Positions 46,238-49,651 of a stretch of 64,000 nucleotides of DNA are shown here, in pieces. The stretch is taken from contig CAZCZF010000002.1 in assembly GCA_964503025.1 (NCBI GenBank), positions 2,999 through 66,998 on the forward strand, read 5' to 3'. Made by a program: the position numbers and the translations under genes. Each line of letters starts with the position of its first letter. Positions within the stretch are counted from its first letter, which is position 1. The stretch comes from an uncultured Vampirovibrio sp. GTDB lineage: Bacteria > Cyanobacteriota > Vampirovibrionia > Gastranaerophilales > Gastranaerophilaceae. The notes under the pieces are model-generated. The model was not told where the DNA came from, made no database searches, and saw only the letters and a program-made list of their open reading frames with translations.

Positions 46238-46255
46238 ATTTCCGCATGCGGAAAT
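46238..46255. promoter_or_regulatory. Perfect 18-bp palindrome upstream of the XRE gene (candidate operator)
   Basis: ATTTCCGCATGCGGAAAT, 33 nt before the ATG. Confidence 0.55.
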
Positions 46256-46288: not shown

Positions 46289-46537
46289 ATGTGGGATGAT
46301 AATGTTGATATACAAAAAATTGTAGGACGCGTTATACGTGCAGAGAGAAAACGGCGCGGCTTTAAGTTTACTTTGTTTTGTTATGAACATGGTATTCCCA
46401 CAACTACACTTTATATGTTGGAACAGGGCAATAGAAAAATAAGAGTTGATAATTTGTTTAATGTTGTAAATGCTTTGGGTTTAAGTTTTGCTGAATTTGG
46501 TGCTTTAGTAGACAAAGAACTTGCTCAAAATATGTAG
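46289..46537 (+). CDS. XRE-family HTH transcriptional regulator
   Basis: VGRVIRAERKRRG...LYMLEQGNRKIRVDNLFNVVNALG. Confidence 0.8.
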   Translation: MWDDNVDIQKIVGRVIRAERKRRGFKFTLFCYEHGIPTTTLYMLEQGNRKIRVDNLFNVVNALGLSFAEFGALVDKELAQNM

Positions 46538-46570
46538 TTTCTTATTCAATTCTCATGTTAGAATGTTGCT

Positions 46571-46903
46571 ATGGGAAATAAATTGTTGAAATGTCATTAT
46601 TCTTTATTGCCGGCATTTGATACTGATGAACCAGTTAGGGATGCCATGCTTGCAGGAGTGAAAATTACAGGCGTAACTTTTTATTATGAAAATCCTCTCA
46701 AAATAATTGCACAGTACCCTATTTTTATTACAAATGATATGCACTATGAGGATGTTGTACAGCAGCTTACTTATCTTGAACAAGTCTTACGTCCGTTCAT
46801 TGTGGAAAAAATAGCAAAAAATGAGCCGATTGAGCTTAAATCTATGTTGAAACAAAACGGATGTGGTGGTAATTGCAAGGGGTGTGGCGGATGCAAAAGT
46901 TAA
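46571..46903 (+). CDS. Degenerate PurN-like (formyltransferase C-terminal half) protein with Cys-rich tail
   Basis: CHYSLLPAF...VRDAMLAGVKITGVTF...IIAQ matches the NIHPSLLP...GxKxTGxTVH...II.Q pattern; ends GCGGNCKGCGGCKS. Confidence 0.65.
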   Translation: MGNKLLKCHYSLLPAFDTDEPVRDAMLAGVKITGVTFYYENPLKIIAQYPIFITNDMHYEDVVQQLTYLEQVLRPFIVEKIAKNEPIELKSMLKQNGCGGNCKGCGGCKS

Positions 46904-47670
46904 ACATTTTGGTTGTCGGAAACAGTGACACTAATGTCTTGTCTTTGCTTTCTGAATCCAAGTATTTGAATAAAATTTTTACTACATTTGAGTCGGAAGG
47001 ATTTACTAATATTCGCTATAATACATTCAGAGAGCTTGCGGTAAAGTGCAAGTCTTTAAAGATTGATATTGTTTTAGTAGAAGATAAAAAATTGATTTTG
47101 CAGGGTATTGCGGATGTATTGCGTGCGAATTTTATTAATTGTATTGCGCTAACTTCAGATTGGACCAAACTTATTTTATCAAGCCGGTTTGCGCGAAATA
47201 TTGCAGAAAAATATGGTATTGCCGTTCCTGAAAAATTTAAGTATCCAAAAACATTCCCGCTTGTTTTGCGTGCGGATGGAAAGAAAGAATTTGTAAATTC
47301 AATGGCTGAATTAATCGAGGTAAGGAAGAATTTTTTGAATGTGCCTACAGAAATTACTCAAACAATATATCTGGAACAATTCTTGGAAGGTGAAAAATAT
47401 ATGTTAACATCATTTTTTGATGGGAAAAATGCTGTGACATTTCAGGTCGAAGGACTCTCTTCCGATTTAATTGCCGAGTATAACAAAAAAATTCAAACTA
47501 TGTTTGTGAAAGAGGTGGCAAATTTTATCGGATATATAAATTCCGATGTTATTCTCTCAGATGGTGTTTTGTATAATATTGGATTTAATATTGATTTTCC
47601 GCAAAAATTCCCTCAGGATATGCTTTATATTTTTGTTTTAGCTATATATCAAAAACTTGATGAGCTTTAA
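46891..47670 (+). CDS. Degenerate, truncated PurD-like (GAR synthetase N + ATP-grasp remnant) protein
   Basis: LNILVVG, IDIVLV, QGIADVL, KYGIAVP, PLVLRADG, LEQFLEGE; GGREHA absent and C domain absent. Confidence 0.65.
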   Translation: MQKLNILVVGNSDTNVLSLLSESKYLNKIFTTFESEGFTNIRYNTFRELAVKCKSLKIDIVLVEDKKLILQGIADVLRANFINCIALTSDWTKLILSSRFARNIAEKYGIAVPEKFKYPKTFPLVLRADGKKEFVNSMAELIEVRKNFLNVPTEITQTIYLEQFLEGEKYMLTSFFDGKNAVTFQVEGLSSDLIAEYNKKIQTMFVKEVANFIGYINSDVILSDGVLYNIGFNIDFPQKFPQDMLYIFVLAIYQKLDEL

Positions 47671-47714: not shown

Positions 47715-49601
47715 TTATTCTCCAAGAAGCTTGTCAGCTAATGGTGATTCGACTTTCCCGTTCAAGGTTTTAGAAACTTTTTTTATGTTTTCTGCCATTT
47801 TTTCCATTTCCGGAGTCCATACAAAGTTGTCAAGGACATATTTTTCTCCTTTAGAGAAATCGCCCTTTAGCTGAACCTGTATTATTTCTTCTAACATTTT
47901 ACGCGCGGTTGGCACCATTTTGTCGATATTTACATTTAAAATGCCATCCGGAGAAATTTCTATTGCGCCTTCTTTGATGAAATAATAATTTTGCATGACC
48001 GAACGAACCCTATGAGCCTGACTCAAAGTCGGTTTAGACATCATCATATTATCTGCAGCATAAGTTACAATAATTTGTTTTCTCTGCTCCGGTGTGTACA
48101 TTCCGGCTTCTGTCAGCAAATCTAACATGGCAAGAGAAATCATATCAGCTTTGTTTTCTTCAATTATTGATTTATACTTGCCTAATCCTTCTGTGCCGGA
48201 TTTTGGTCCGAGTGAGTGTCCGTTTTCGTGTCCGACAGTAAACCAATGGTCTGCTTCATCGTTGTAGAATTGATGTAATTCAGGATTAAGCGTTGCGTTC
48301 AGTCTCTTTTTCATTTTTTCGCGTGCATCGTCTGATGTAATCAAACGAATTTGCCTGTGGTAAACATTTCTTCTGCCACCGTCAAGTTCTTTGATGGAAA
48401 GCTTGTCGTCATTTGGTAAGTTTTCCGCAAGTGTAATTCCCGCTCTAAATTCTCCAACATCACCGGTTACGGCTACTAAATCCGCATCAACCATAGTCTG
48501 TTTTGATTCTTTGTCAGGAGAAATATTTTGGATGTAATCATCTTTGAACGGCATATTTTGTGCCATTAATGGTAAATAATTTTTAACTCCCAGTATGGCT
48601 TCTGTTCCTTTTTTGTTGATAATTCCCACTCTTCCGCCGAGAAAATCCTTGGCAACCGGTATAATTCCGTTTTCATCAAGCAATTTTTTTAATTCAGGAT
48701 TTTCCACAACCGTTTCTGTTAATTCATCAGAGTAGTTTTCTCTTGTTATTGTAAATTCCAGCGGTGTATCTTGCAGAGTTGCCCACTTTTTATCAGCATA
48801 AGCATCAAGCATTGGATCTGCTGTTCTTAGAGCTTTTGCTTGCAAAAGTAAGAACTCATTAAAATCTGCATTTGTGGAAGTTTCTGCAGCTTTTTCCAAT
48901 TCGGATGCCATAATCGCAAAATCGTCTTTGAATTTGTCTACATAATCGGTTGCAACAAGTTCATTTCCTGCTCTTTCCACAACCGAACGCTGATTAAGTA
49001 TTTTGGCAACTTCGTCCACTTCTCCCTTTTGAAGCATGTTGATAAGGATTGAATGGAACTCTTCTTTTTCCAAATCTTGCGGGTAAACGCCTTTTCCGGC
49101 ACGCATTGAAACTCCTTTTACAAGTTCAATCATGTTACTTTCTCTATCGAGAGAGCAAACTCCCTTTTGTGCATCAAAAAGAATTTTTGTAAGTTTAGCT
49201 TGCTCGTTTCCTTTTGCAATTTCATCTTCAAGAAATTCTTTAAAAGGCAGGTTATTTGGGTTATCAAGTTGCATATTAACCTTGTCTAATGCAATTGCCG
49301 CTTTTACCAAGTGTTTTAATGCTTCTTTGTCTCCATCTGCAAGTTCTGCGTATTCAGGCGCATCAACAGCTAACATTTTTTTTGTTGTTAAATAATCTTT
49401 ATGTGTTCTTTTATTTAGTTCTTCCATTGAAAGATTTAATTCAAAATCTTTTTTTCCAATATTTACGTTGTTAATCATGCTCATTTTATCAAGCTCCTCT
49501 AATAATTTATTTGAATTTTCAGCAATCTTGTTCTGAGGTGCTTTTGAGTCAACACCTCTTGTTGTTATGTTATTAATTCTATTAATCGGGTTAATATTCA
49601 T
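47715..49601 (-). CDS. Peptidase M49 (DPP III / NUDT3-like) zinc metallopeptidase with Asn-rich N-terminal extension
   Basis: AENLPND, GHENGHSLGP (HExxH), IEENKAD. ATG at 49601 (MNINPI...). Confidence 0.78.
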   Translation of the reverse strand: MNINPINRINNITTRGVDSKAPQNKIAENSNKLLEELDKMSMINNVNIGKKDFELNLSMEELNKRTHKDYLTTKKMLAVDAPEYAELADGDKEALKHLVKAAIALDKVNMQLDNPNNLPFKEFLEDEIAKGNEQAKLTKILFDAQKGVCSLDRESNMIELVKGVSMRAGKGVYPQDLEKEEFHSILINMLQKGEVDEVAKILNQRSVVERAGNELVATDYVDKFKDDFAIMASELEKAAETSTNADFNEFLLLQAKALRTADPMLDAYADKKWATLQDTPLEFTITRENYSDELTETVVENPELKKLLDENGIIPVAKDFLGGRVGIINKKGTEAILGVKNYLPLMAQNMPFKDDYIQNISPDKESKQTMVDADLVAVTGDVGEFRAGITLAENLPNDDKLSIKELDGGRRNVYHRQIRLITSDDAREKMKKRLNATLNPELHQFYNDEADHWFTVGHENGHSLGPKSGTEGLGKYKSIIEENKADMISLAMLDLLTEAGMYTPEQRKQIIVTYAADNMMMSKPTLSQAHRVRSVMQNYYFIKEGAIEISPDGILNVNIDKMVPTARKMLEEIIQVQLKGDFSKGEKYVLDNFVWTPEMEKMAENIKKVSKTLNGKVESPLADKLLGE

Positions 49602-49651
49602 AGACTTCGGACTTGATTGTAACACATTTTGCGGGGTATTTCAATGATTGA

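Follow-up and report, generated by a model that had tools for sequence, protein, structure and literature searches.

A reduced PurN-like and PurD-like gene pair at an ancestral pur locus of gut Gastranaerophilales, probably retained for non-catalytic roles

AIR, the product of PurM, links purine synthesis to thiamine, since ThiC builds the thiamine pyrimidine. Work on Salmonella has shown that PRA can arise independently of PurF, and the vGAT of herpesviruses derives from a purine-pathway enzyme. These viral pseudo-amidotransferases (pseudo-GAT) are covered in the review PMC7605207, and AIR is described as the substrate of ThiC (PMC11117688, PMC12661338). The closest enzymes to the genes studied here are PurN (TIGR00639/PF00551; PDB 3kcq, 3av3, 1cde) and PurD (TIGR00877; PDB 2qk4, 1gso, 2yw2).

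The window, which is the whole stretch of 64,000 nucleotides analysed here, belongs to a genome of 2.0 Mb that is 99% complete. It carries two overlapping reading frames, ORF A and ORF B, which a preliminary description had presented as PurN-like and PurD-like, each with a list of lost motifs and without internal stops, and the alignments agree with this description throughout. Comparisons were made within a genus set of 98 species genomes of the same GTDB genus and within an order sample of 201 genomes, 166 of them from the same family (GTDB family f1, gut Gastranaerophilales), all genomes being MAGs. The locus comprises the following features.

46289..46537, plus strand: Xre-type HTH gene of 82 aa (PF01381, E 1.8e-4), 33 nt upstream of ORF A
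46538..46570, plus strand: relic of the missing N-terminal part of ORF A, in frame and TAG-interrupted (PurN profile match)
46571..46903, plus strand: ORF A, PurN-derived pseudoenzyme of 110 aa, C-terminal formyltransferase half with a Cys-rich tail (family matches, alignments, AF2, dN/dS)
46862..46894, plus strand: tail C-GGN-C-KG-C-GG-C, residues 98-108 of ORF A (Cys columns invariant or nearly so in the family)
46891..47670, plus strand: ORF B, PurD-derived pseudoenzyme of 259 aa with N, B and partial A domains left (profiles, alignment, AF2, dN/dS)
47715..49625, minus strand: convergent gene for a conserved 636-aa protein of no Pfam family, with an HExxH-like HENGH (marker of the ancestral pur locus)

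Two reduced reading frames related to PurN and PurD

In a Pfam profile search the match of ORF A to PF00551 is confined to residues 3-40 (E 7e-6), while the PurN model TIGR00639 gives 27.1 bits over model positions 102-188 of 192, far under its curated cutoff of 150.1. ORF A differs from PurN in having half of the fold: the N-terminal nucleotide-binding half and the G-x-G-S-N loop for the GAR phosphate are not found in its 110 aa. In the family alignment the N-x-H motif has become K-C-H (local sequence LLKCHYSLLP), with Lys in place of Asn, and at least four residues of the Asp-bearing loop are gone, ORF A reading YYENPL----KIIAQ where full-length relatives have HEVTPELDSGRIIAQ. The protein ends in GCGGNCKGCGGCKS. 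What it shares with PurN is the fold of the C-terminal subdomain and the HxSLLP and IIAQ core motifs. Indeed, AF2 predicts residues 5-90 with a pLDDT above 90, and the core of the model superposes on the PurN C-terminal subdomain at ~1.9 Å rmsd over 83 columns with ~31% identity, hence a predicted formyltransferase fold limited to that subdomain.

On the upstream side the PurN profile match runs 33 nt beyond the ATG of ORF A, through a TAG (G000:C2:49536-49895, model positions 38-155, one TAG), and this stop-interrupted relic is located between the HTH gene and that ATG. The HTH gene is lineage-specific and sits where the lost N-terminal coding region of ORF A was; the same 82-aa gene is found upstream in L086, the closest relative of the window, and in L088. 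It is probably co-transcribed with ORF A. A terminator-like hairpin (46238-46255) lies ahead of the HTH gene, and besides this hairpin a scan for promoters and terminators gave nothing above chance.

For ORF B the listed start was a TTG at 46873, giving 265 aa, which is unlikely to be the one used: the start shared by all homologues is the ATG of position 46891, which is preceded by AAGGGG and gives a protein of 259 aa beginning with MQKLN. Because ORF B starts at this ATG, its overlap with ORF A is 13 nt. The start and stop overlap recurs wherever A and B both exist, which suggests that they are made together where both are present. The prediction of a complex between the two proteins gave an ipSAE of 0.05 and was weighed neither for nor against binding.

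The PurD model TIGR00877 scores ORF B at 30.9 bits, over model positions 39-210 only, against a cutoff of 288. Alignment with full-length PurD of the same genus, to which ORF B is 36-38% identical, shows GSGGREHA replaced by GNS--DTN and SSKLVAK by SSRFAR, while the Gly-rich B-loop LKADGLCGGKG is reduced to LRADGK----- with five residues gone. A deletion of 26-27 residues covers the SPNTGGMGSY region and thus the PNTGGMG A-loop; the E/N Mg ligands are missing together with the GDPE motif, and the protein stops ~94 residues short, lacking the C-terminal GARS_C domain. Its likeness to PurD lies in the fold of the N, B and A domains, since the AF2 model (pLDDT 91.8) has the ATP-grasp/PurD fold, and the closest solved structures to it are human and bacterial PurD enzymes with TM 0.76-0.83 (0.82 for 2qk4). 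Neither ORF A nor ORF B contains an internal stop. Taking profiles and predicted models together, the resemblance of the two proteins to PurN and PurD is beyond chance and, as the preliminary description held, neither of them is a canonical member of its family.

It could be asked whether A and B are still enzymes with a changed chemistry, B as a ligase- or kinase-like user of ATP and A as a protein that binds or hydrolyses formyl-folate. The hinge Glu (E168) is invariant in the ORF B family and a basic residue is kept at the VxKADG position, and the longer A-like forms of other genera often keep N-x-H, all of which would suit such a reading. It is nevertheless improbable, since B has neither the Gly-rich B-loop nor the A-loop and is without its two Mg ligands and its C domain, and the window's A has lost the N-terminal half of the fold entirely, along with the phosphate loop, the catalytic Asn and the Asp-bearing loop; the family score of B falls ~10-fold under the cutoff. 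The more specific proposal of a folate sensor is unlikely for the 110-aa ORF A because half of the folate pocket is lost.

Constraint and distribution of the two families

The dN/dS of A and B by the NG86 (Nei-Gojobori) method ranges from 0.07 to 0.24 in unsaturated pairs, a range that rests on closer pairs only, dS being saturated in distant ones. Between the window and L086 it is 0.08 for A and 0.11 for B, with flanking genes at 0.04-0.22. At most 4 of the 89 reduced B genes have a stop inside the match, and the frames are still intact in proteins that have diverged down to 42% identity. Enzyme homology, loss of the catalytic residues and purifying selection are thus found together, and A and B are probably pseudoenzymes. 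The dS values of the same window and L086 comparison are 1.11 for A and 0.31 for B, a 3.6-fold gap between overlapping genes that may come from sampling error, A having only 110 codons, or from a recombination breakpoint.

Within the genus set the B family is present in 94 of 98 genomes, at full length in 5 and reduced in ~89. The A family is found in 54 genomes and has no match in the other 44/98, and when five of the A-less genomes were searched genome-wide no A was found anywhere. Five genomes of the genus carry full-length, overlapping purN (194-220 aa) and purD (~397 aa) with all catalytic motifs kept, scoring 143-152 bits for PurN (cutoff 150.1) and 289-302 bits for PurD (cutoff 288). 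On the B tree the reduced forms make up one clade with a support of 100 and a long stem, beside the slowly evolving full-length PurD. The members of this clade have invariant residues of their own (NTF, E-x-EK-x-ILQG and NC) in the former active-site cleft. The reduced A family of the genus shows several sizes: forms of ~160 aa, from which the phosphate loop, a central segment and the Asp loop are gone; forms of 100-134 aa, the window's copy included, from which the N-terminal half is gone as well; or the gene is missing altogether. On the B tree the losses of A number at least 3-4, and two of the clades affected, with 8 and 9 species, have retained B.

These data also bear on whether ORF A and ORF B have no function and have been decaying slowly and neutrally since the pathway was lost. 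Decay would be in keeping with a window genome from which the purine/AIR pathway is gone, with the stepwise shrinking of A from ~200 to 160 to 110 aa before its loss, and with the few B matches that contain a stop. We consider it very improbable, given dN/dS values of 0.07-0.24 like those of neighbouring genes, frames that stay open in ~85-89 species despite the divergence of the proteins, a confident AF2 model of B, and a reduced B clade with its own invariant residues. The preliminary description had likewise seen retained rather than decaying genes, and the dN/dS values, the presence of B in 94/98 genomes and the scarcity of stops bear it out.

That description had further proposed that the two genes are a co-retained pseudoenzyme module. 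Retention stands, since both are kept by selection, whereas the module does not, given the genomes without A, its repeated losses, and A-like genes that occur elsewhere without B. Indeed, Cys-tailed A-like genes are present in 98 of the 166 family genomes, most of which lack purM according to a comparison of genome lists, and in genera without purM and almost without a PurD relic they are found in 26/26 (g8), 24/32 (g2) and 10/11 (g12) genomes. PurD relics of other genera measure 251-373 aa, show other deletion patterns and occur in genomes without purM, while B is missing from most other genera that lack purM. A and B are therefore retained independently in different lineages and are not an obligate module. 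B needs no A, because it persists in genomes without A, and neither role is essential, because nearly half of the genus does without A and most of the other purM-less genera have no B. Their pairing in this genus is best described as two retentions that happen to coincide, perhaps with a degree of cooperation.

In other genera of the family (L095-L098, from G147, G167, G114 and G197), single proteins of 583-669 aa are PurN-PurD fusions without a Cys tail at the junction, and these genomes are purM- and thiC-positive.

The ancestral locus, the lost pathway and the Cys-rich tail

In one locus of the genus, L074, the genes are arranged as glgA-purM-purN-purD, and downstream of purD comes a gene of 633 aa that shares 85% identity with the 636-aa gene of the window. 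Since the gene following purD in L074 matches the convergent neighbour of ORF B, the window pair lies at the ancestral pur locus. The purN-purD neighbourhood invoked in the preliminary description is confirmed by this synteny, the pair descending from neighbouring purN and purD at the same place. The 636-aa gene adjoins the locus in 25 of 61 related loci; its product is 85% identical between species that are strongly diverged in A and B. In other genera the A-like gene lies between oadGAB and glgC, the position that purM-purN-purD occupies in the purM-positive genus of G133, and because of this shared position the A-like genes there are explained by deletion in place. Among the neighbours in 61 pair loci and 14 A-like loci of other genera no functional partner was found, and the conserved ones (glgA, glgC, oadGAB and a 630-aa gene) are explained by synteny by descent.

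The preliminary description had asked for canonical purN and purD elsewhere in the genome. The search of the window genome found neither canonical purD, purN or purF nor any purM or thiC, and relics of purL and purM were likewise absent. Across the genus set, the six genomes with purM (6/98) are precisely those with thiC; full-length purN and purD are present in five of these six, and none was detected in the sixth, G276. Furthermore, all purM-positive genomes of the family sample (26/26) are thiC-positive, and purM is found in none of the 136 thiC-negative ones. purC is absent from all 166 family genomes (0/166), and no canonical purF was found in the five purM-positive genomes tested, whose purL measures 511-526 aa. 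The purL of thiC-positive species is short, 502-526 aa (G133, G171, G272, G119; L104:2045-3553, minus strand), spanning positions 5-540 of the 718-position FGAM synthase II model with the C-terminal quarter missing. The possibility that the pair is a genuine, though diverged, PurN and PurD belonging to a pathway with all its other steps in place was considered and rejected, purM, purF, purL, purC and thiC all being missing.

The survival of purD, purN, short purL and purM with thiC only was seen in G265, G266, G272, G276, G277, G278, G133, G171, G119 and others, with L074, L104, L105 and L106 as loci. We lean towards the view that the ancestral purM-purN-purD operon served the supply of AIR for thiamine and not purine synthesis. 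Neither a TPP riboswitch nor any other Rfam element was found near the pair or the examined pur operons, and because no TPP riboswitch lies beside these operons the thiamine link rests on co-occurrence and pathway logic.

Elsewhere in the window genome, an ORF of 283-296 aa (G000:C8:2968-3819, minus strand, equal to L014:1504-2352) matches PurH in its AICAR-transformylase part only (PF01808, E 1.5e-33), the IMP cyclohydrolase domain being absent. This ORF may be a further truncated relic of the purine pathway, or else an AICARFT that stands alone.

The Cys4 tail of ORF A had been regarded as new and as a companion of the erosion of the enzyme, which does not hold. A Cys-rich tail is already found on PurN proteins of the genus whose catalytic motifs are intact (L072-L076), with the ending NCSGCQGNCGGC, and on the intact PurN of G133, from another genus, with the ending GCNGGCGGCGGCH; the tail is thus not tied to erosion. 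Together with HxSLLP, GVKVTG, IIAQYP and the invariant His H58, it is among the best-kept features of the A family, and in the AF2 model of ORF A it is disordered (residues 95-110, pLDDT <50). Canonical PurN is without such a tail. In a survey of 1.84 billion representatives, in which a tail was defined by at least three Cys and proteins were clustered at 50% identity, ~74 clusters of tailed A-like proteins were found, nearly all without the catalytic Asp and the phosphate loop. In contrast, their tail-less PurN neighbours are canonical, with N, H and D kept in 57 of 63 representatives, D being almost never present in the tailed ones. The tail may be a Cys4(-His) metal site, for Zn or Fe-S, and would then already have been a second property of the ancestral PurN, an assignment that we make with low confidence.

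The idea that A is a peptide-precursor-like or carrier protein whose Cys tail is modified or loaded by B, as in ATP-grasp RiPP or LysW/LysX systems, would fit the translational coupling of a protein as small as A, with its flexible, Cys-rich C-terminus, to one of ATP-grasp fold, but is scarcely credible with a B that lacks the ATP-grasp catalytic residues, a tail already present on PurN with intact catalytic motifs, tailed A-like genes widespread without B and B occurring without A, and Cys positions that are conserved, not hypervariable.

Other proteins of the window genome also end in Cys-rich stretches. Its C-terminal windows with at least three Cys number 11 observed against 4.9 expected (p = 0.012), a modest excess, and Cys-rich C-termini may be a habit of the lineage. 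Such endings occur in a DtxR-type iron repressor (C7:25102-25575, minus strand; CLNCKSGCCGCK), an SDR (C3:61631-62326, plus strand; CAGLTCGC) and an ATP-grasp_5 fragment (C12:34147-34572, minus strand; GYCCKDGVCACGC). A pyruvate formate-lyase (G000:C7:21973-24452, minus strand, equal to L099:474-2953) is split within the glycyl-radical domain into pieces of 696 aa and 85 aa, of which the 85-aa piece bears RVSGYAV, and each of the two finishes with a short Cys-rich tail (...DCGCSEGTCGC and ...GGCSCGC).

Origin, possible roles and comparison with known systems

We favour, with a probability of about three in four, the reading that ORF A and ORF B are selected, non-catalytic relics of a purM-purN-purD operon. 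According to the proposed course of events, this operon and the short purL would have made AIR for ThiC through the four steps PurD, PurN, PurL and PurM in purine auxotrophs, the phosphoribosylamine for this branch coming from a source other than PurF. Once most species of the genus had lost thiC, purM and purL, the catalytic apparatus of purN and purD would have gone as well, and the descendants of these two genes would have been kept intact under constraint, each with a non-catalytic role. Such roles are deduced because A and B were kept as intact, constrained proteins after catalysis was lost.

As to what these roles are, two proposals can be made, neither of which we hold with confidence. 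In the wider one, which is possible and yet on the unlikely side, the Cys-tailed PurN-like proteins (~74 clusters) would be an undescribed non-catalytic family with regulatory or metal-handling functions, present in most purM-lacking genomes of the family, while the PurD relic would be largely genus-specific; both would have been born from the stand-alone AIR branch for thiamine, and a metal or Fe-S site functioning in the tail would be a second task of the ancestral PurN that has outlived the enzyme. A slightly more doubtful proposal concerns the two proteins themselves: B would be a stable, PurD-shaped, non-catalytic scaffold whose remodelled cleft, with the new invariant residues, the adenine-hinge Glu and a basic residue of the former ATP site, might receive a small ligand or a partner protein, and A a small alpha/beta domain presenting a flexible metal-binding Cys4(-His) tail.

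In the literature on purines in Gastranaerophilales and Melainabacteria, on ATP-grasp pseudoenzymes and on partial purine pathways with ThiC, nothing was found that describes the pair or the stand-alone branch. The pair consists of undescribed pseudoenzymes with a well-resolved origin. It offers a natural series from enzyme to pseudoenzyme in one genus and at one locus, from the intact operon through the reduced pair and a shorter pair to the lone survivor, all under selection. Moreover, automated names such as 'formyltransferase' and 'phosphoribosylamine-glycine ligase' would mislead metabolic models of common gut bacteria, and the vitamin B1 and purine dependencies of gut Melainabacteria are touched by a four-step AIR branch that is apparently kept only with thiC.

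In comparison with the purine-thiamine branch point, at which AIR is drawn off for ThiC, the co-occurrence of purM and thiC fits the known scheme, and the difference is that the AIR branch here appears to survive alone, with purC in 0/166 genomes and no canonical purF in those tested. The vGATs resemble A and B in being catalytically dead homologues of purine enzymes kept for a non-catalytic role. They are, however, viral proteins with known host partners, whereas A and B are bacterial and chromosomal, two adjacent relics left after the loss of their pathway.
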